A DNA stretch of 64,000 nt from positions 64,001 to 128,000 of IMG/VR virus record IMGVR_UViG_3300026549_000029, one strand, 5' to 3'. Source of the DNA: a virus (lineage: Duplodnaviria > Caudoviricetes). Every line of letters begins with the position of its first letter. Position 1 is the first letter of the stretch. Below, piece by piece: positions 25,381 to 62,880 of this stretch. A model generated the notes under the pieces. That model was given only the letters and a program-made list of their open reading frames with translations. It made no database searches and was not told the DNA's origin. Position numbers and translations under genes: made by a program.

Positions 25381-26748
25381 TTATTCTCCTTCTTCCTCTT
25401 CAGGATCATTATCTACATCATGACTATCACCAAATTGTCTTGCAGCAAATAATTCAGTAATAGTGATCTTACCACTAGAAATTCCACTAATGGTAAAACT
25501 ATGAGCATTAGTACCTGATTCAAGAAAAGCTCTAATAGTTACATTACCAAAGGTATAAGTATAATCAAGCGTATCAATATTATCCCAATCTATCATTATA
25601 ATAGTATCAAGATCCATTGTATTATTAATCTGATCAATAAGATCAGTAAATACAATATGATATACATCTAAAGAAGCATTATCATGCCAGTTATCTACAT
25701 TAAGATGAACAGTATAAGAATTATTAGTAACAGGCATTTCATAATTAGAAAGTAAATTATCTTGGCTATCTGTAACAGGAGCATTTACTCTCTTATAGTT
25801 GAGTGCATTAATACCAGTTACAATAATATCTCCGGTCATATATTTACCAGTAGTATGAATAGTCTGAGGAGAAAATGCTGAAGCTACTGTTTGAGTTCCT
25901 AAAGTTTCTATATTCTGTGTTACAACTCCATTACCAGAGTGATAGCCCTTAGGAATAGTATATGATCCATTAACAGGAAGAATTTCTGTAGAAGAAGTAA
26001 TCTTAGTGATATTACCAGTAATCTTAGTACCATTTACCCAAGCAGTCTTACCATCTACTATATCTGCAGCTGTAGCTGTACCAGAAGTTTGAGATGATAA
26101 TGTATTGGCAGTTACAACTCCAGTACCATCATGATATCCTGCAGGAATAGTATAGGCTCCACCTGCCTGAAGAACTTGTGATACAGACCCAATATTAGGC
26201 ATAGTACCAGTAATAGAAGATCCATTTACCCAAGCAATCTTACCAATTAAAATTTCTCCTGTGGTTGCATCTCCAGGAGTTTGATCAGATAAAGATCTAG
26301 CAGTTATAACTCCAGTACCATCATGATATCCAGCAGATATAGTATGAGTTTCTCCACAGTTAAGGGTAGTAGATTCTGTACCTATGTTAGGCATAGTACC
26401 GGTAATTTTAGTACCATTTACCCAAGCAACTTTATTTTTTAAAATTTCTTCTGCAGTTGCATCTCCAGGAGTTTGTCCAGATAATCCTGCTGCACTTACA
26501 GTATATCCTTCTGGAATTTTTCCATAAGGAACAGCATGAGATTCTCCACAAAGTAATGTAATATCACTTGTATATTCAGCAACAGGCATTATTCCTGTCT
26601 CTAATTGAGAAGTAGTTCCAATAAAAACTTTCCCAGATACAACATCAATAGGAGATGCTGTAATTAAATTTTTATCTGATATAACAACATCAACTATTTT
26701 AATAGAATCTGTAAATGGCATAATATTCCTCCTATAGAATAGCCACAA
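25381..26748 (-). CDS. Tail-fibre-like repeat protein
   Basis: ~65-aa repeats GDATA..IL..K.AWVNG..ITGTMPN...YTIPAGYHDG; probable start ATG26721 after AGGAGG. Confidence 0.75.
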   Translation of the reverse strand: MWLFYRRNIMPFTDSIKIVDVVISDKNLITASPIDVVSGKVFIGTTSQLETGIMPVAEYTSDITLLCGESHAVPYGKIPEGYTVSAAGLSGQTPGDATAEEILKNKVAWVNGTKITGTMPNIGTESTTLNCGETHTISAGYHDGTGVITARSLSDQTPGDATTGEILIGKIAWVNGSSITGTMPNIGSVSQVLQAGGAYTIPAGYHDGTGVVTANTLSSQTSGTATAADIVDGKTAWVNGTKITGNITKITSSTEILPVNGSYTIPKGYHSGNGVVTQNIETLGTQTVASAFSPQTIHTTGKYMTGDIIVTGINALNYKRVNAPVTDSQDNLLSNYEMPVTNNSYTVHLNVDNWHDNASLDVYHIVFTDLIDQINNTMDLDTIIMIDWDNIDTLDYTYTFGNVTIRAFLESGTNAHSFTISGISSGKITITELFAARQFGDSHDVDNDPEEEEGE

Positions 26749-26823
26749 TATTACTATGGAGTTGAATCTTGCCTCTTGAGCACATTATATTAATATTTTG
26801 CTTTAAAAAGGAGCTAATCCCAT

Positions 26824-29800
26824 ATGGCCAAAGAGATTTTATCCTATGAAAATGACATAGCAAATAGATCTACTGAGGTTGATAGAAATAGTTCTATTGC
26901 TACGGAATATAATGTATTATCGGGTCATATATTTCAGGATGCTATAACTAGAGAACCATTGGTTGGTACTATGCCTGATAATGGTTATATACATGAAACA
27001 CTAGAACCTAGTACAAATGAAGAATTATCTTATTATGTAATTCCAGAAGGTTATCATAATGGTTCTGGAATGATAATAGCACCAAAAATATCAGATTATA
27101 CTTTTGGTACTGCTACTGAAGAAGATATTGCTTATGGTAAAACTGCTTGGGTTAATGGTGAAAAAATAGTTGGTACTTTAGATGTAAGATCTAATGCTCA
27201 AGAAGGTAATGCTACTAGTGAAGATTTGTTATCAAGCAAAGTAGCATGGGTTAATGGAGAAAGAATTGTAGGTAATATTCCTTATCTATATAGAGTAGAT
27301 AAGACTTTATTACCTGGAGAATCTTATATTATTCCATATGGTTTTTCTTCTGGTGATTCTATAGTAACAGCTGCTGATTTATCTACACAAACTACTGGTG
27401 ATGCTACTGCAGAAGATATTGCTTATGGTAAAACTGTATGGGTTAATGGAGAAAAAATAGTTGGTACTTATAGAACAGATGAAGCTATAAGAGAATGGTT
27501 ATCTGAAGCTACTGTAGAAAGAGAAAATGTATTAGAAGGAGCTAAATTCTATTCTACTTTATATAATTCTGTAGTAGAAGGTACTATGATTGATCATTCC
27601 GGTGAGGAATCTAGAGTATTATCAAACGGTGAAGTATTTTATATTCCTGCTGGATATTATAATGGCTTAACTTCTATTGAGGTTGTAAAAATAGGCAATG
27701 TAACTGTAGCTAATATGGAAGCAGATGATTTGATTGCTGGTAAAACAGCTTGGGCCAATGGTGTTAAAGTTACTGGTACTATGCCTAAAATTGAAAATAT
27801 AAATGCTATAGTGGCATGTGATGAAGTATATACTATTCCTATGGGTTTTCACTCTGGAGAAGGTAAAGTTACTGGTAAAAATCTTGCATCTCAAACTCAA
27901 GGTACTGCTATTGATAGCGATATTTATAGTGGTAAAACTGCTTGGATTAATGGTGTTAAAGTTACTGGTACTATGACTGTAAATCCACATATTGAAAAGA
28001 AACTTGAACCTGGTGAACAGTATATGATTCCTATGGGATTCCATACAGGAACAGATTTTATTTATACAGATAGCATAGCAGATCAGACTCAAGGAACTGC
28101 TACTGCTACTAGTATGCTTGAAGGTACTACTGCATGGGTTAATGGAATAGAGATAGTAGGTACTATTCCTGTAATCTCTAATCAAGATATTAGTCTTGAT
28201 GGCGGTGAATCTTACACTATTCCTGCTGGTTATTATGATGGAACATCTATAATTACTGCTACTACAGTATCAGATCAAACTCCTGGTACAGCTACAGCTG
28301 AAGATATAGTAAGTGGTAAGACTGCTTGGGTTAATGGAGTTAAAATTACCGGTAATATTGAATTGACTGGTGATGCAATCTCTGTGCAAGTATTAAAAGG
28401 AAAAACTTTTTATAATACAAATGTACACCAACAGATTACTGGTGAATTAGAATTAACTGGTAATGCTACTGCTGATAAAGTATTAAAAGGACTTAAGTTC
28501 TATTCTGATGATCCATTTACTCAATTAGAAGGTACATTAGAATTAACTGGTGATGCAAGAACTGCTCATGTTTTAGCAGGAGAGACTTTCTATACTACCC
28601 ATTATGATTTTAAAGAAACCGGTACTATGATAAACAGAGGAGCTATTGTAAAAGGTTTAACCTCTGGAGAAGTATATACTATTCCTGCTGGATATCATAA
28701 TGGTAATGGTAAAGTTACAGCCCCTTCTATTGAATCTGTAACAGAAGGTACTGCAGTTGCTAGTGATATTATTAAAACTAAAACTGCTTGGGTTGATGGA
28801 CAAAAACTTACTGGTACATTAGAATTAACTGGTAATGCAGCTGCAGAAAATGTATTAATAGGAAAAACTTTCTATTCTACTAATCCTAAAACTAAACTTA
28901 CTGGTACTATGCCAAATATTACAGATACTGATACTGAACTTCAAGCTGCTGGGACTTATGTTATTGAAGTTGGTTATCATAATACTCAAGTTACTATATC
29001 TGCTGCAGATCTTACAGATCAAACTTCTGGCACTGCTACCGCAGCTGATATGCTTGAAGGCACTACTGCATGGGTTAATGGTCAAGAGGTTATAGGTACT
29101 ATTCCTGTAATAGAATCTTTTAGACCTACTATTAGTGCAGGAGATTCTTATACTATTCCTGTTGGATATCATGATGGAAATAGTATAGTATATTCAGAAT
29201 CATTATCTTCACAAACTCATGGAACTGCTATTGATAGTGATATTTTAATTAATAGAACAGCTTGGGTTAATGGTGAACAAGTTACCGGTACTATGCCCGA
29301 TAGAGGAACAGAATCTGTAACTCTTAACTGTGGAGAAACTTATAATATTCTTCAAGGATATCATAGTGGTTCTGGAATTATTTCTGCTAATACATTAGAT
29401 ATACAAACTCCTGGTACTGCTACTGCTGCTAATATATTTGAAAATGAGACTGCTTGGGTTAATGGTGTACAGATTATAGGTACAGTTCCTGTATCTAGTG
29501 AGAATGGAACTACTCTTTATGCCGGAGAAAGTGTATCATATTCTGCTGCATATTATGAGAATGGATTATCTATAATAGCTGTAGATCTTGCTACACAAAC
29601 TCCTGGTAATGCAACAGCTTCTCATATTCTTAGTACTAAGACTGCTTGGGTTAATGGCCAAGAAGTTAATGGTTCTATGACTAATATAGGATCAGAATCT
29701 GATACTCTTAACTGTGGTGGAACTCATATTATTTCTGCTGGATATCATGATGGTACTGGAGTAATTACTGCAGCTAGTTTATCTTCACAGACACAAGCTA

Positions 29801-30666
29801 CTGCTGTAGCAGGAGAAATTCTTAATACAAAGACAGCTTGGGTTAATGGTGTTAAGATTACTGGTGATATGCCCAATAGAGGAGCTATAGTTGAGACTAT
29901 AAATGCTGGTAGTACATATACTATTCCTGCTGGTTATCATAATGGTTCTGGAACTATTACAGCTTCTGATTTGTCTGGACAGACTTCTGGTACTGCTATA
30001 GCAGATGATATTTTATATAATAAAACTGCTTGGGTTAATGGTACTAAATTAACAGGTTCTATGCCTAATATTGGGACTGAATCTGATACTCTTAACTGTG
30101 GTGCTACTCATACTATTTCTGCTGGTTATCATGATGGTTCGGGTGTTATTACAGCAGCATCTCTTGCTTCTCAGACTTCTGCTAATGCTGTAGCTGCTAA
30201 TATATTATCTACTAAGACTGCTTGGGTTAATGGTACTAAATTAACAGGTTCTATGCCTAACGTGGGTACAATAACTAGAACTCTTAATGCTGGTGAATCT
30301 TATACTATAGATGAAGGATATCATACTGGTACTGGTGTAATATCTGCACAGACCTTGGCAGAGCAGACTGTTGGTACTGCTACAGCTGATGATATGTTAT
30401 CTAATAAGACAGCTTGGGTTAATGGAGTACAAGTTACTGGTAATATTCCTGTAAGATCTGGAGCTGATACTACTATTAATGCTGGTGGTACTGTAACAGT
30501 ACCTGCTGGATATTATCCAAATGGATTTATTATTAGAGCTGCATCTCTTGCTTCTCAGACTGATGGTACTGCTACTGCTGGTGATATTGTTATTGATGAA
30601 ACTGCATGGGTCAAAGGTGAGAAGATCACTGGTATTATCGCTAGCGGTGATGATGTTTCTTACTAA
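26824..30666 (+). CDS. Long tail-fibre-like repeat protein
   Basis: About 17 (T/V)AWVNG-type units plus several shorter LELTG.A...G.TFY units. Confidence 0.8.
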   Translation: MAKEILSYENDIANRSTEVDRNSSIATEYNVLSGHIFQDAITREPLVGTMPDNGYIHETLEPSTNEELSYYVIPEGYHNGSGMIIAPKISDYTFGTATEEDIAYGKTAWVNGEKIVGTLDVRSNAQEGNATSEDLLSSKVAWVNGERIVGNIPYLYRVDKTLLPGESYIIPYGFSSGDSIVTAADLSTQTTGDATAEDIAYGKTVWVNGEKIVGTYRTDEAIREWLSEATVERENVLEGAKFYSTLYNSVVEGTMIDHSGEESRVLSNGEVFYIPAGYYNGLTSIEVVKIGNVTVANMEADDLIAGKTAWANGVKVTGTMPKIENINAIVACDEVYTIPMGFHSGEGKVTGKNLASQTQGTAIDSDIYSGKTAWINGVKVTGTMTVNPHIEKKLEPGEQYMIPMGFHTGTDFIYTDSIADQTQGTATATSMLEGTTAWVNGIEIVGTIPVISNQDISLDGGESYTIPAGYYDGTSIITATTVSDQTPGTATAEDIVSGKTAWVNGVKITGNIELTGDAISVQVLKGKTFYNTNVHQQITGELELTGNATADKVLKGLKFYSDDPFTQLEGTLELTGDARTAHVLAGETFYTTHYDFKETGTMINRGAIVKGLTSGEVYTIPAGYHNGNGKVTAPSIESVTEGTAVASDIIKTKTAWVDGQKLTGTLELTGNAAAENVLIGKTFYSTNPKTKLTGTMPNITDTDTELQAAGTYVIEVGYHNTQVTISAADLTDQTSGTATAADMLEGTTAWVNGQEVIGTIPVIESFRPTISAGDSYTIPVGYHDGNSIVYSESLSSQTHGTAIDSDILINRTAWVNGEQVTGTMPDRGTESVTLNCGETYNILQGYHSGSGIISANTLDIQTPGTATAANIFENETAWVNGVQIIGTVPVSSENGTTLYAGESVSYSAAYYENGLSIIAVDLATQTPGNATASHILSTKTAWVNGQEVNGSMTNIGSESDTLNCGGTHIISAGYHDGTGVITAASLSSQTQATAVAGEILNTKTAWVNGVKITGDMPNRGAIVETINAGSTYTIPAGYHNGSGTITASDLSGQTSGTAIADDILYNKTAWVNGTKLTGSMPNIGTESDTLNCGATHTISAGYHDGSGVITAASLASQTSANAVAANILSTKTAWVNGTKLTGSMPNVGTITRTLNAGESYTIDEGYHTGTGVISAQTLAEQTVGTATADDMLSNKTAWVNGVQVTGNIPVRSGADTTINAGGTVTVPAGYYPNGFIIRAASLASQTDGTATAGDIVIDETAWVKGEKITGIIASGDDVSY

Positions 30667-30687
30667 TATTTAGGGAGATAAATAATT

Positions 30688-31260
30688 ATGGGAAATATTG
30701 AAAGAAGAAATATTAGAATTGAAGACTGGGAAGGTAATATTTACTATCCTGAGACGCAATCTGGCTCGTCTTTAGCTGGAAGAATTATAGATTCAGAAGA
30801 TGCTACTACTGATCTTACCAGTGGCTCTGTTACTATTACTGAAGGAACAGTTACTACTGATATTACTGCTAATAATAGTATCGCTATCATGATAGCATCT
30901 CCTGCTGCAGATAAGTTATTATTCCAGACTGCTGTCTCTGGTATTCCTTTTGGAAAAGTAGCAGTAGATATTAGAATCAAATCTAATGTAGTAAGTTCTG
31001 CTAATATTTTTAAAGTAGAATGTTATTATTATGATACTATTGAAGAATCTGAAGGAACTCTTTTAGAGACTAAAACTTTTAAAGGTACTGATATTAGTAC
31101 TGCTAATACTTATAAAAATATAAACTTTATTACAGATTTCTATGGTAATTATAAAAGCTCTGTAACTTTTAAGATTAAAGTAATTGCTATTGGTGGAAAT
31201 GCAGCTACATTATACTTTGATCAGATTGCTATTGCTAAAGCAATGCCTACTATCTCTTAA
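30688..31260 (+). CDS. hypothetical protein, probable tail/fibre-associated beta-rich protein
   Basis: GGGAG RBS; co-transcribed with the fibre gene; terminator 31272-31299. Confidence 0.75.
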   Translation: MGNIERRNIRIEDWEGNIYYPETQSGSSLAGRIIDSEDATTDLTSGSVTITEGTVTTDITANNSIAIMIASPAADKLLFQTAVSGIPFGKVAVDIRIKSNVVSSANIFKVECYYYDTIEESEGTLLETKTFKGTDISTANTYKNINFITDFYGNYKSSVTFKIKVIAIGGNAATLYFDQIAIAKAMPTIS

Positions 31261-55186: not shown

Positions 55187-55552
55187 TAATAATATAGCCC
55201 ACTTATTAGGAAACTAATAGGTTGAATACCAAGAAATTGCTGGAAAATCCTAAAGCTCTCTTGCCTATATGGAGTGAAAACAGAAATAAGTAGAGAGATG
55301 AACTATGGTGAAATAAAAGCTCTTAATATAATAAGAGTCCTAAGGTTTATTAATAATGGATGATCAGCAGCCAAGCTCTATATTATTATATAGAGAAGGT
55401 TCAACGACTAATTGTAAGGCTCAAGTGAGTCTGAAAACTTGGTACACCTAACCTAGAAATAGTATGGTGAAGATATAGTCTGTCCTTTAAGGAAATCTTA
55501 AAGAAGTTCATAAGAGAACTACATAGATTAACGACCTATGTGAACATAAGAG
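55187..55552 (+). ncRNA. Group I intron 1 of the DNA polymerase gene (366 nt, no ORF)
   Basis: P1 GGU/GCC with U.G; P3 UACCAAG/CUUGGUA; P4 UUGCUG/CAGCAG; P7 GACUA (55406-10)/UAGUC (55476-80); terminal G55552. Confidence 0.92.
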
Positions 55553-55562
55553 ATTTACGGTT
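55553..55562 (+). CDS. DNA polymerase 10-nt micro-exon (ATTTACGGTT = I-Y-G + first base of L)
   Basis: Supplies the invariant YG of motif B and restores the reading frame between exons 1 and 3. Confidence 0.88.
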
Positions 55563-55877
55563 TAACATATTAGACCTCTTATATAGAAATATATAAGTAA
55601 AAACAGGGTTAAAATTGGAAGAAGGTTAGATTGGCCATCTAATATTCAATCAATTACGAACACTACTTTTAGTAGGGACGTTTAACGACTATCCTCTTAA
55701 GAGGAGTAGGGCTCAAGCGAGCGTGGCATTCTTGTAAATGTAAGTCCACTTAATTCGAAAATCCTGCACCTAAACCTAATTATTTGGCATGGTGATTATA
55801 TAGTCTCAGCATTCAGGTAACACTTGAAGAAGTTCATAAGAGAACTGCACAGATTAGCGACCTGTGTGAAGATACTG
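55563..55877 (+). ncRNA. Group I intron 2 of the DNA polymerase gene (315 nt, no ORF)
   Basis: P1 GGUU/GACC with U55562.G55573; P3 CAGGGUU/AAUCCUG; P7 GACUA (55687-91)/UAGUC (55801-05); terminal G55877. Confidence 0.9.
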
Positions 55878-57749: not shown

Positions 57750-58928
57750 ATGATTATAGATAAAAATGGAAATAAACATGTAGAAATAGGTGATAAATAT
57801 GGTAAACTTACTGTGATAGAAAAATCTAATAATGATTATATAACTTCATTCGGATATCATATTCCAAAATATATATGTAAATGTGAATGTGGTAATTATA
57901 CAGAAATATTAGAATATAGTTTAACAAATAATCGTACAAAATCATGTGGCCATTGTAGTAATATTCATATTGGAGATAAATTTGGAAAATTAACAGTATT
58001 AGAAAAAGATAAAAATGATTGTATATTACCATCAGGAAGGCATATTCCAAAATATATATGTAAATGTGAATGTGGCAATATAATATCTGTATTAAAATAT
58101 ACTTTACTTAGAAATCAAAAATTATCATGTGGTAATTGTAATTCAATTCATATTGGAGATAAATTTGGAAAATTAACAGTAATATCTAAAGCCAGTGATT
58201 ATATAAATCCTAATTCTGGAAATTGTATTAAAAGATGGCTTTGCAAATGTGAGTGCGGTAATACTACAATAGTAAGAGATAATGATTTAAAACGTGGTAT
58301 AACTAAATCATGTGGATGCTTGATTATTGAACAATTAAAAAAGAGAAATAGTACTCATTTATTATCTAATACACTATTATATAGAGAATATAGTAGTATG
58401 ATACAAAGATGCTATAACCCAAACAATATTAGATATCCAGAATATGGTCAAAGAGGAATACAAGTTTGTAGAGAATGGTATAATTCAGATTATAAAAAAG
58501 GATTTGATCCAGAATGTATTAATATATTTTATAATTGGGCAATAAATAATGGGTATAAAGAAGGTTTAACTATTGATCGAATCAATGTTAATGGTAATTA
58601 TGAACCTAGTAATTGTAGATGGATACCAAAAGAATATCAAGCACATAATAGAAGAAATAGTATAAAAATAAATCTTAATGGAGAAATATATGATATAGGA
58701 CAAATTTCTAGTATATTAGGTATAGATTATATGTTTTTATATCATCGATTAAAGAAGAATAATTATAATTTATCTTCTTTATTTACTTATATTACAGATC
58801 AATATGGTAATACTAGACCTTATATATTAGATAAATATAATAATCCTATACCTATTAATATTATATACTTTATAGATGAATATGGATTTCCTATATCACA
58901 AGATAAGATAAATGAATCTAATATCTAA
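57750..58928 (+). CDS. Free-standing HNH endonuclease with three Cys-rich N-terminal repeats
   Basis: 3 x IGDK(F/Y)GKLTV...CKCECGN...SCG; MIQRC, YGQRGI.VC.EW, LTIDRINVNGNYEPSNCRW. Confidence 0.9.
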   Translation: MIIDKNGNKHVEIGDKYGKLTVIEKSNNDYITSFGYHIPKYICKCECGNYTEILEYSLTNNRTKSCGHCSNIHIGDKFGKLTVLEKDKNDCILPSGRHIPKYICKCECGNIISVLKYTLLRNQKLSCGNCNSIHIGDKFGKLTVISKASDYINPNSGNCIKRWLCKCECGNTTIVRDNDLKRGITKSCGCLIIEQLKKRNSTHLLSNTLLYREYSSMIQRCYNPNNIRYPEYGQRGIQVCREWYNSDYKKGFDPECINIFYNWAINNGYKEGLTIDRINVNGNYEPSNCRWIPKEYQAHNRRNSIKINLNGEIYDIGQISSILGIDYMFLYHRLKKNNYNLSSLFTYITDQYGNTRPYILDKYNNPIPINIIYFIDEYGFPISQDKINESNI

Positions 58929-59096
58929 ATTATAATAAAGAAAATATTATAATAGTGAATGAAATTAACTTATTCACTATTATAATTATATAAGGATAAA
59001 ATAAAATGACAAATTATATTATGGAAATAACCGAAGAAGAGAAAAATATTTTTAAAGAGATTATTAAATATAAATATTTTGAAGAGGGATAAAAAT

Positions 59097-59465
59097 ATGA
59101 AATTTTGGATTATTCATGAAGATTATTATGAAGATTTAAAACTTTATGATCCTATAGAAAATAGTGATATTATTTATGTCGCTAAAAGTGAAGAAGAAGC
59201 AAATAATTATATAGATAATCTTTATAATAAAAATTTAGATCTTATTATTGAATCAAATGAAAAATCTAAAACGTTTAGAAGTACAATATCTGATCTAATG
59301 GCTGAAAAGAAAAGAAGAAAAAATAATATAGTATCTACTATTAAATATTATTCTATTGCTTGCCATAAACTTTGTAAAGATAAAGAAGGCAATGAATATA
59401 TGAAACTTACTAGTGTAAATAATTATGTTTATAATATTATTGAAATTGAAATAAAAGAAGGTTAA
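59097..59465 (+). CDS. hypothetical protein
   Basis: Likely start ATG59097 after GAGGG; preceded by a 28-codon ORF at 59006-59092. Confidence 0.7.
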   Translation: MKFWIIHEDYYEDLKLYDPIENSDIIYVAKSEEEANNYIDNLYNKNLDLIIESNEKSKTFRSTISDLMAEKKRRKNNIVSTIKYYSIACHKLCKDKEGNEYMKLTSVNNYVYNIIEIEIKEG

Positions 59466-59510
59466 TCCTTCTTTTATTTTTAATATTTTCAATAATATAT
59501 AATAAATATG

Positions 59511-59643
59511 AATAAATTGGATGGCCCTGAGAGTAATCGAGGTGAGCGATTATGGAGAAATTCTCCCTGGGTTAGAGTACACGACCCGGAGATATTGGCT
59601 ACGGTCAAATATGTGTACTACCTCTCCATACATCCAATTTATT
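59511..59643 (+). ncRNA. Candidate ~130-nt pseudoknotted ncRNA
   Basis: GC-rich island; 13-bp closing stem, internal stems, cUACGg tetraloop, 7-bp loop pseudoknot; promoter motif before and T run after. Confidence 0.7.
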
Positions 59644-59744
59644 TTTTTTATTAAATATATTTTTTTATTAAATAAATGATTTCTAATATTTTCTATAAAA
59701 AGATATTATAATATTGAAACAAAATATGAAAGGAGAATGTTACT

Positions 59745-60104
59745 ATGTATGATTTTAAATTGTATCAAAAAGTATCACAAAAGTTACAGAAGAAAATGGA
59801 AGATGAATATAATTGGAAAATTGATTCTTATGGGATACTTGATAAGGATGATGGAATATCATTTATAAGATATATAAATACAAAGAATCCATCATCTACA
59901 TTAAATATATATGAAGATGGAGATTGCTATTTAGATGATAAAATTTATTATCCTTCAGCACAAGAAATGGAATTAATTAAAAAGATTATTAGATTAGAAC
60001 TTTCAGATGATAATACTGTGATAAATGAACTTAAGAGGTATGCAAATAATAATAAGGAGAATGAATATGAAAACTATTTTTCTTGTTTTAGAGATATCCA
60101 CTAA
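59745..60104 (+). CDS. hypothetical protein
   Basis: AAGGAG RBS; promoter motif at 59704. Confidence 0.75.
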   Translation: MYDFKLYQKVSQKLQKKMEDEYNWKIDSYGILDKDDGISFIRYINTKNPSSTLNIYEDGDCYLDDKIYYPSAQEMELIKKIIRLELSDDNTVINELKRYANNNKENEYENYFSCFRDIH

Positions 60105-60324
60105 TAATGATGGTAGTAAGAAAAGAAGAGCATTATCTTTCTCTGAAAAGTATAAAGCAATAAATTTTATTACAGAATATGTAAATCATAAATATGATGA
60201 AAAATATATATGTAAACTTAATGATGATGAAAAATATAAAAATAATAATTTATATAAAAGAATTATTACAGAAACTTCTACAATAGAATATTATATAGAG
60301 GAGATTGATTATATAGATGAATAA
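60061..60324 (+). CDS. hypothetical protein
   Basis: AAGGAG just upstream of ATG60061/60067. Confidence 0.7.
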   Translation: MNMKTIFLVLEISTNNDGSKKRRALSFSEKYKAINFITEYVNHKYDEKYICKLNDDEKYKNNNLYKRIITETSTIEYYIEEIDYIDE

Positions 60325-61418: not shown

Positions 61419-62507
61419 ATGAATAATACTTTTAATTTTGATATTGTGTATAAATCTATTATGAACTATGGTGCTTGTAATAATTGTGAACATTTTAAAG
61501 ATGCATATCAGTCTATGTGTAAAATGGGTGGTATTCCTGGAGAATACTGCATTATAAATGGTGATGAATTTACTAAGAATTTTAATCTTGGTAAATTCAT
61601 CATTTGTGAAGCCAGAGATACGACTGGTAGACTGTATATAAGAACTTTAGATATAGTCAGAGATTATATTCGTAAAGATGGATGGTGGAATATGTTTACA
61701 CTATCTACAAATATAATTGACAAAGAAGGTCTGTGGCTTTGTCAAATAAAAAGATTTACTGTTGACAAAAAAGGATATCCAATGAATATTGTATGTCCTA
61801 TAAAATATATAGGAACAGAAACATTCATAAGAAATAATATGAATGCAATGTTTCTGTTATCAAAAAGTAGGGAATTCGCTTCTTCAAAAGAATTCTCTTG
61901 TATTAATAAGGAGAATGATTATTATACTAATTATGATCCTTATAGAGCTGGTGCTTATGATATTCTTTATGATGGATATCATGAAGAATTATATTGGCTT
62001 AATGAAATAAGACTTGCAAAATATGTATTAAAAGAATATATTGCAGGAAATGTTTCATTACCAGAAATTAATTCAGCTGTCACTGCTAAGTCTATGAAAT
62101 TTTATTGGACTGTAGAGGAGTTCAACAAAAGAATCAATAGATTCTTACACGAAATAGGATATCGAGATGTATATCCTCTTGTATACAAAAAGCTTCAATC
62201 TGGTACATATAAATATGTATCAGATTTCATTAATCATATGATGTATACTTATGATACTTTACTTGATGAAGGTAAAGTAAATGATATAGATTTGTATGAT
62301 TTTACTGATAATCATATGGATCTATTAGATATGATTAATGAGGTTTGCATGTATTATCAAGAGTTATATGCTGGTAAAAAAGAAAAAGAAAAAGCCGAAA
62401 GAAAAAGAAAACGGCTTGAAAGGAGGCAATTAGAAAAAGAAAGAAAACAAAAAGAAAAGGATTACTCCTTTTCTTTTTTATTTTTAAAAGTTAATATTTT
62501 CAATTAG
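61419..62507 (+). CDS. hypothetical protein
   Basis: AGGAG RBS; promoter motif at 61371; N-terminal CxxCxxF; the ORF reads through its apparent terminator. Confidence 0.8.
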   Translation: MNNTFNFDIVYKSIMNYGACNNCEHFKDAYQSMCKMGGIPGEYCIINGDEFTKNFNLGKFIICEARDTTGRLYIRTLDIVRDYIRKDGWWNMFTLSTNIIDKEGLWLCQIKRFTVDKKGYPMNIVCPIKYIGTETFIRNNMNAMFLLSKSREFASSKEFSCINKENDYYTNYDPYRAGAYDILYDGYHEELYWLNEIRLAKYVLKEYIAGNVSLPEINSAVTAKSMKFYWTVEEFNKRINRFLHEIGYRDVYPLVYKKLQSGTYKYVSDFINHMMYTYDTLLDEGKVNDIDLYDFTDNHMDLLDMINEVCMYYQELYAGKKEKEKAERKRKRLERRQLEKERKQKEKDYSFSFLFLKVNIFN

Positions 62508-62524
62508 ATGATATAAAAGTGAAA

Positions 62525-62624
62525 CATAAGTAAGATAGTATAGTTCACATTAGCCTCCAATGTTCTGTTGGTATTTAATTGTTTGAGGATAGATGGAGAA
62601 ACCCCAACAGATATCTTGCTTATG
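62525..62624 (+). ncRNA. Candidate ~100-nt structured RNA or leader
   Basis: CAUAAGUAAGAUA/UAUCUUGCUUAUG closing stem, UCUGUUGG/CCAACAGA inner stem, CUCCA/UGGAG pseudoknot. Confidence 0.5.
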
Positions 62625-62670: not shown

Positions 62671-62880
62671 ATGAGAAAAAAAGTTATGAGGTGTTTCCCT
62701 GATTGGTTTGAAGAACTGTGTTGCAACATTGGGTACGCATGTATCTGCGGATACCTGATTGGAGCTGGAGCAGCTCTTATGGATGTAATTATCCATAGAA
62801 AGTACTGGTTTGACAACAAAGAAAAACAGACTGAAAAGATCGATACATCTGATCCTAACTGCTTCAAAGAAGTAGTTTGA
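62671..62880 (+). CDS. small putative membrane protein
   Basis: AAGGTGG RBS; one hydrophobic segment; terminator 62889-62910. Confidence 0.55.
   Translation: MRKKVMRCFPDWFEELCCNIGYACICGYLIGAGAALMDVIIHRKYWFDNKEKQTEKIDTSDPNCFKEVV

Follow-up and report, generated by a model that had tools for sequence, protein, structure and literature searches.

Phage T4 carries two stable RNAs, species 1 and 2 (rnaC/rnaD), which lie in a tRNA cluster and are processed from a precursor. The T4-type phages also have PeSL cassettes, which Arbiol, Comeau and Krisch reportedly described in 2010; in these cassettes an early promoter and a stem-loop are said to border the shuffled genes of hyperplastic regions. From jumbo phages with RNA polymerases of their own, we know of few non-coding RNAs.

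We analysed 64,000 nucleotides of DNA (the window) from a virus record of 287,868 bp and 27.7% G+C that comes from the cattle gut (rumen). Because its portal protein is about 25% identical to the portals of Bacillus phages AR9/PBS1, of Staphylococcus jumbo phages and of Listeria and Fusobacterium phages, we place this phage, by sequence, as a distant member of the AR9-like (AR9/PBS1) jumbo phages. An earlier note on the window had pointed to a non-coding structured RNA on the + strand with its own promoter and a U run, and the sequence features that we found support this description. The element lies at 59511-59643 (+). One other lineage carries it, represented by a 24.5-kb rumen contig (L002) and by eight ENA/Logan contigs found by way of a neighbouring protein. 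With two lineages and three haplotypes, we regard the element as a candidate new RNA family that is framed by a known kind of promoter.

Like species 1 and 2 of T4, the element would be a phage-encoded, structured RNA of about 120-140 nt. Unlike them, it has a putative promoter of its own, it has no tRNA neighbours and it shows no sequence likeness to them; ARAGORN found no tRNA or tmRNA in the window. With the PeSL cassettes it shares an early promoter, a stem and a T run, a place in variable islands, and non-syntenic exchange between related phages. However, the stem here encloses a conserved core of 107 nt (48% G+C) with compensatory evolution, and the cargo is the RNA itself and not a protein gene. 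The SAM-I/SAM-IV and THF aptamers are similar in having a P1, a multi-helix junction, a loop that pairs near the 3' side and a length of about 100-130 nt, whereas the element has no sequence or CM match to them, has no expression platform, stands alone and is followed by different genes in its two settings. A long stem of the 5' and 3' ends that closes a structured module is also found in Y RNA (YrlA, bound by Ro/Rsr). A Y RNA was nevertheless rejected: no TROVE (Ro) domain is encoded in the 288-kb source genome, in which the positive controls were detected, the element has no tRNA-like module, and no Y RNA model of Rfam matches.

Promoter motif and predicted ends of the putative transcription unit

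The early promoter of AR9 was mapped experimentally as AAATATATATTAT-N6-G(+1), and it is used by the injected virion RNA polymerase (PMC5312081). The motif ATATTAT-N6-G, which recurs in our source genome (35 copies on the + strand, 9 on the - strand), is the 3' part of this consensus and mostly lies 15-35 nt upstream of a ribosome site. In its fuller form the conserved motif reads (A/T)AG-ATATTATAAT-WWTG-A and equals the core of the AR9 early promoter; examples in the window are at 879, 19076, 35774, 36999, 58944, 59703 and 61370.

The one-mismatch early promoter that the earlier note had read before the element is present, and its predicted start, G59510, lies 1 nt before the closing stem (Table 1). 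In L002 a perfect ATATTAT-N6-G stands at the same distance from the element. Thus, as far as motifs can tell, the consensus and the conserved +1 G of an AR9-type early transcription unit are both found here. The likeness to AR9 early units lies in this promoter core before the RNA and in the predicted start at the conserved G; the difference is that a short non-coding RNA would be made here, whereas AR9 makes mRNA. The word 'noncoding' is absent from the AR9 transcription paper (PMC5312081). Because the AR9 virion RNA polymerase is reported to be sensitive to single deviations from the promoter motif (PMC5312081), it is not certain that the one-mismatch promoter of the element is used.

The T run that had been noticed at the end of the element is also present, directly after the closing stem, and a T run follows this stem in L002 too. 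Given the promoter at 59510 and the U run, the product would be an RNA of about 139 nt that consists almost entirely of the folded element. We infer that the element is its own transcription unit. A terminator of the preceding ORF is predicted to insulate the unit on its upstream side. The next early-promoter motif lies about 55 nt beyond the U run, and because this perfect promoter serves the downstream 119-aa gene, that gene would be independent of read-through. We also considered the conserved stretch of about 30 nt upstream of the element as part of a mobile unit. This was rejected, as the similarity is the general promoter context of the phage group and relatives carry the same stretch in front of ordinary genes.

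Table 1. Features of the element and of its immediate surroundings, with positions in the window
Feature	Position	Strand	Reading
Terminator hairpin of the preceding 128-aa ORF	59448..59480	+	Only terminator-like site in 58900-60200, against 0.1 expected
Early-promoter motif ATATAAT-AAATAT-G	59497..59510	+	One mismatch from ATATTAT-N6-G; G59510 is the predicted +1
Predicted RNA gene, about 139 nt	59510..59649	+	From +1 G to U run; predicted from promoter and U run
Closing stem Pa, 5' arm	59511..59523	+	13 of 13 Watson-Crick pairs with 59631-59643
Junction GCCCUGAGAGUA	59524..59535	+	Unpaired in the model; invariant apart from U27>C
Hairpin Pb, AUCG-AGGUGAG-CGAU	59536..59550	+	Predicted; invariant
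Long-range helix Pc, 5' arm TATGGAGA	59551..59558	+	8 bp with 59623-59630; three compensatory pairs
Hairpin Pd, CUGGGU-loop-ACCCGG	59567..59589	+	Predicted; invariant; stem arms 59567-72/59584-89
Pseudoknot PK1, 5' strand AGUACAC in the Pd loop	59576..59582	+	7 of 7 complementary to GUGUACU at 59613-19
Hairpin Pe, UUGGC-UACG-GUCAA	59595..59608	+	Predicted in every fold; invariant
PK1 and PK2, 3' strands	59613..59622	+	PK1 at 59613-19; PK2 ACC at 59620-22 with GGU at 59541-43; complementarity only
Pc, 3' arm TCTCCATA	59623..59630	+	Partner of 59551-59558
Pa, 3' arm	59631..59643	+	Partner of 59511-59523
U run directly after the closing stem	59644..59649	+	Read in the sequence; likely termination point
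Next early-promoter motif	59703..59716	+	Perfect ATATTAT-N6-G, then AAGGAG and ATG; serves the 119-aa ORF at 59745-60104

Fold of the element and comparison of its copies

The element has a G+C content of 43% (48% in the core) and lies between flanks of 15-25%; 'GC-rich', as it had been called, is true in this relative sense only. Its + strand has an MFE of -43.7 kcal/mol, compared with -29.8 +/- 3.5 in shuffles (z -4.0), and the L002 homologue folds with a z of -3.5. Three perfect stems of at least 7 bp occurred in 0.8% of dinucleotide shuffles.

In our model, Pa, Pb and Pc are predicted to form a three-way junction, and two more hairpins, Pd and Pe, would lie inside Pc. PK1 probably forms between the Pd loop and the 3' tail, with a duplex of -7.5 kcal/mol and with loops of 3 nt and 1 nt that, by inspection, fit an ordinary H-type knot. 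Both strands of PK1 include the palindrome GUAC. PK2 is weak, as it has just three free pairs and -0.9 kcal/mol. If both knots form, the 3' 31 nt would pair continuously with four upstream segments, giving a 'spine' of PK1, PK2, Pc and Pa. Other pairings can be drawn as well: RNAalifold offers alternative local pairs for the junction, and Pd has an alternative, longer register with an extension at 59562-66/59588-92 (UCUCC..GGGU/ACCC-GGAGA).

Many of these pairings had been read in the earlier note. Its closing stem and its long-range helix are both present and both carry compensatory change (see below), and its UUGGC-UACG-GUCAA hairpin appears in every fold. The CUGGGU/ACCCGG stem is present as well, with the longer register as its alternative. 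For GUAAUCG/CGAUUAU, the 4-bp AUCG/CGAU part stands; the stem as first read overlaps Pc, and its outer two pairs are broken in L002. The complementarity of AGUACAC and GUGUACU is perfect, and the pseudoknot that it would make is a prediction with invariant columns. In the proposed GAGGU/ACCUC pairing, GGU and ACC are free to pair and the other 2 nt overlap Pc.

The structure model was fixed before any homologue was known, and the comparison covers two lineages and three haplotypes. The copies of the window and of L002 show 11 differences. Eight of these make up four compensatory pairs, of which Pa has one (A-U to U-A) and Pc three; the remaining three differences fall at unpaired positions, and every helix pair is kept. 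In the third haplotype (L188, L192), a pair of Pa is changed from A-U to G.U. When 11 substitutions were placed at random 200,000 times, at least four compensatory pairs arose once (P ~5e-6), and placements without a broken pair arose 25 times (P ~1e-4). Because the changes are compensatory and none of them breaks a helix, Pa and Pc are supported by the sequences, and the best explanation is that the helices have been kept intact by selection. In contrast, the columns of Pb, Pd, Pe, PK1 and PK2 are all invariant and give no covariation. Thus, these hairpins and both pseudoknots stay predictions. There is a 52-nt invariant block inside the element, and the high identity between the copies could be partly due to recent transfer instead of constraint. 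The earlier note had proposed a search for homologues and had held that a lack of both expression and covariation would speak against its reading; the L002 lineage was found, with compensatory change in two helices.

We assign the RNA to the + strand because of its G.U and U.G pairs (in Pa of the third haplotype and in Pd and Pe) and because the CM R1 scores 177 bits on the + strand versus 20 bits on the - strand. The U.G pair of Pd and the G.U pair of Pe each work on the + strand only. The MFE fold of the single sequence contains a local GGAGA/UCUCC hairpin that competes with Pc. This hairpin is weakened in L002, and the comparison argues for Pc and not for the hairpin. Two further readings were rejected. 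The words GGAGA/UCUCC give Pc the look of a Shine-Dalgarno/anti-Shine-Dalgarno pair, and this reading was dropped because they are not kept in L002, which reads GGGAA/UUCCC. A sarcin-ricin-like reading of AGUA/GAA was also abandoned, as the U is a C in L002.

Occurrence and genomic setting

A Logan contig of the window's own lineage carries an identical element. Between the window and L002, the element is 92% identical over 133 nt, whereas orthologous genes of the two phages have DNA identities of 59% (portal) and 65% (PolB-N) and protein identities of 32-50%. By CM and BLAST, the element is absent from 33 other related phage records, the closest relative included; seven of these records are at least 94% complete, and one has a 93%-identical portal protein. 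We scanned IMG/VR with an exact 17-mer, 20-mer and 15-mer and with two gapped or degenerate patterns, the JGI metagenomes with an exact 19-mer, and the GTDB genomes with an exact 17-mer. L002 was the sole true match in these scans, and the rest were chance matches when checked with BLAST and CM. No match to the element was obtained with blastn against phage and plasmid collections. The CM gave none over 151 Bacillota genomes either; this is a small sample and counts for little as evidence. No paralogue turned up when the window was searched with the CM and the complete genome of the phage with BLAST, and each genome has a single copy.

The element is not syntenic between the two lineages. In the window it is part of a 2.6-kb island that follows PolB-C and replaces 526 bp of the closest relative; the gene order of this island is HNH endonuclease gene, 128-aa ORF, RNA, 119-aa ORF and 99-aa ORF. 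In L002 the element lies between the portal gene and a 188-aa gene that follows PolB-N, where the window's phage has four other genes. Because the distribution is patchy and non-syntenic, and because the identity of the element exceeds the 59-65% of orthologous genes, horizontal exchange appears far more parsimonious than vertical descent with many losses. Exchange between two phage lineages, to which the sequences point, was absent from the initial reading. The best explanation of the distribution is that the element is a rare accessory cassette, traded horizontally and found in two phage lineages only.

Several other features of the source genome were observed. The free-standing HNH endonuclease gene (window 57750-58928), directly after PolB-C, is absent from the closest relative, and its 5' half contains three 183-nt tandem repeat units (57786-58334). 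PolB-C itself is interrupted for about 690 bp at window 55189-55877 and is a contiguous gene in the closest relative; the interruption contains a G+C island and an 83%-identical direct repeat of 63 nt (55486-55548, 55812-55874). PolB-N, which lies outside the window, is split into ORFs of 518 and 114 aa. The gap between them (L121:2010-2333 = G000:C1:155509-155832) matches the group I intron model of Rfam (54 bits, E 6.5e-13), and the gene is uninterrupted (650 aa) in the L002 lineage. A 362-aa ORF at window 61419-62507 is without any family match and has no tblastn match in the syntenic 16 kb of the closest relative, where a shorter stretch of about 950 bp is found instead. At window 26000-30700, coding repeats of 192 nt (64 aa) that share the conserved words GTA..AWVNGE..GT form long arrays, which are probably a repeat-rich tail fibre or surface protein.

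The window also holds a second closing-stem element, at 62519-62624, with a 13-bp stem (one G.U), an 8-bp inner stem and two hairpins (MFE z -2.55). It comes directly after an early-promoter variant (from about 62480) and lies in the 5' leader of a G+C-rich 69-aa ORF (62671-62880). The same promoter (92% identity) and a similar small ORF occur in the closest relative, whose leader is however short and different, and the body of this second element had no match in the 18 related phage records searched. A genome-wide scan for units of an early promoter and a long closing stem was too noisy, the DNA being AT-rich.

Known families, rival explanations and a possible role of the RNA

None of the 4227 models of Rfam 15, which include riboswitches, ribozymes, 6S, SRP, Y RNA, group I/II introns and cow-rumen motifs, reached its gathering score anywhere in the window. 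When hits with E up to 10 were admitted, the region 59400-59750 yielded only noise and a miRNA model on the AU-rich closing stem (14.9 versus 100 bits). As a control, the same tool detected the group I intron elsewhere in the genome at 54 bits. The novelty that had been claimed for the RNA thus withstood this Infernal-type check at both thresholds.

Individual families were also considered and rejected. The core of the hammerhead ribozyme consists of CUGANGA, stem II, GAAA, stem III and a UH cleavage site. The element reads CUGAGAG, with positions 8/9 swapped, its GAAA is placed 4 nt past the stem, within the covariation-supported Pc, and the hammerhead models of Rfam do not match. HDV-like ribozymes form a nested double pseudoknot in the order P1-P2-P3-P1'-P4-P2'. 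The order of the element is Pc[Pd(loop)-Pe-loop']Pc', an H-type knot nested in a helix, and there is no Rfam match to this family either. A retron msr/msd RNA was discarded, as no reverse transcriptase (RVT_1) is encoded in the 288-kb source genome. ToxI-like RNAs are tandem repeats of a 34-45-nt pseudoknot unit beside a toxin gene; a type III antitoxin of this sort was discarded too, as the element contains no internal or tandem repeat and adjoins no toxin gene.

We give about an even chance to the proposal that the element encodes a stand-alone, compactly folded early ncRNA that is exchanged horizontally and acts in trans through its shape. In this model, the early (virion) RNA polymerase of the phage would start at G59510, and the transcript of about 139 nt would end in the U run that directly follows the 13-bp closing stem. 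Early in infection, the RNA would then bind a small ligand or a protein of the host or the phage, and it may serve as a decoy or sponge for take-over or counter-defence. It would neither be coding nor act by long antisense pairing. We favour a trans-acting, shape-based RNA because the predicted transcript is short, early and self-contained, the fold is dense, the 52-nt block is invariant, and the islands that carry it are accessory and exchanged. In addition, no coding potential was found in the element, and it has no common cis partner gene and no convincing antisense target in the phage, in whose genome no complementarity stands out. We infer transcription, the RNA ends, the pseudoknots, the trans action and its target; for trans action as a binder or decoy we reason by exclusion and from the accessory-island context. 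For the 'novel phage ncRNA' of the earlier note, the nature of the RNA is supported and its function is not.

A related proposal, which we regard as possible but doubtful, is that the element represents a new class of compact, doubly pseudoknotted RNA, either a ribozyme or a high-affinity binder, that is fired early and traded as a promoter-RNA-terminator cassette. If it is a binder, its target under this proposal may be a host defence or take-over factor or a signalling nucleotide, and the virion-polymerase promoter would place its action in the first minutes of infection.

Other explanations differ in what they make of the ends and the surroundings of the element. It is rather unlikely, in our view, that the element is a selfish, non-autonomous mobile element whose folded RNA or ssDNA promotes its own spread without benefit to the phage; a homing or recombination enzyme whose gene lies at another place could, for example, act on it. 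The patchy, non-syntenic distribution with 92% identity between distant phages and the 13-bp terminal inverted repeat would suit such an element. So would its position, 0.6 kb downstream of the free-standing HNH gene of the window, itself beside an intron-bearing polymerase gene, and shortly downstream of a DNA polymerase gene piece in both lineages. However, each genome has a single copy, its ends show no target-site duplication, and the genome is without a reverse transcriptase. There is also no protein similarity around the RNA between the window and L002, and thus no endonuclease gene travels with the element. A transcribed functional RNA better accounts for the promoter, the U run and the compensatory changes within an internal helix. 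A cis-acting attenuator is unlikely as well. Here, the core would stabilise the closing stem as a terminator, and refolding upon binding of a ligand or protein would set read-through, as in a riboswitch. The U run comes immediately after the closing stem in both copies, the topology (P1, a junction, and a loop that pairs with a junction strand) recalls junction-plus-pseudoknot aptamers, and the second closing-stem element (62519-62624) does sit in a 5' leader. Against this, the downstream genes are unrelated (the 119-aa ORF versus the portal gene), the gene downstream in the window has its own early promoter, no riboswitch family matches, and the element offers neither an anti-terminator pairing nor an alternative pairing with a separate terminator. 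For these reasons, a cis-regulatory riboswitch was rejected.

The fold itself raises the question of catalysis, and phage genomes commonly carry small ribozymes, in a patchy distribution. A new class of catalytic RNA, self-cleaving or otherwise, would agree with the compact, multiply pseudoknotted predicted fold and its 52-nt invariant block, yet we consider it highly doubtful: none of the models for hammerhead, twister, twister-sister, hatchet, pistol, HDV-like and glmS RNAs gave a match at E up to 10, the hammerhead-like words are altered or misplaced and the helix order is unlike the nested double knot of HDV, and a stand-alone transcript has no obvious need for cleavage. Scarcely probable, finally, is a small protein gene or a signal at the level of DNA (a cruciform, an origin or a recombination site). 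A 52-aa ORF (59521-59679) is the sole frame that is open in both copies, and inverted repeats can form in DNA too. This frame, however, has 7 non-synonymous versus 2 synonymous changes, no ribosome site (Shine-Dalgarno) and no homologue among 5.8 billion protein clusters, on which grounds a small protein gene was ruled out. As for a DNA signal, the G.U pairs in Pd, Pe and Pa would turn into mismatches if the opposite strand, or hairpins derived from the duplex, were the form that folds, and the promoter and the U run frame the element exactly.

If the proposal of an early, trans-acting RNA is true, the element would count as a compact accessory 'RNA gene' and would share its evolutionary niche with anti-defence proteins. 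Should the RNA prove catalytic, or bind a host factor or signalling molecule, it would be an RNA-based tool for phage take-over or counter-defence, and it would also offer a small and tractable new fold for structural work. Even if it is only a selfish cassette, the element would still document the movement of promoter-bounded modules in the AR9-like phage group.
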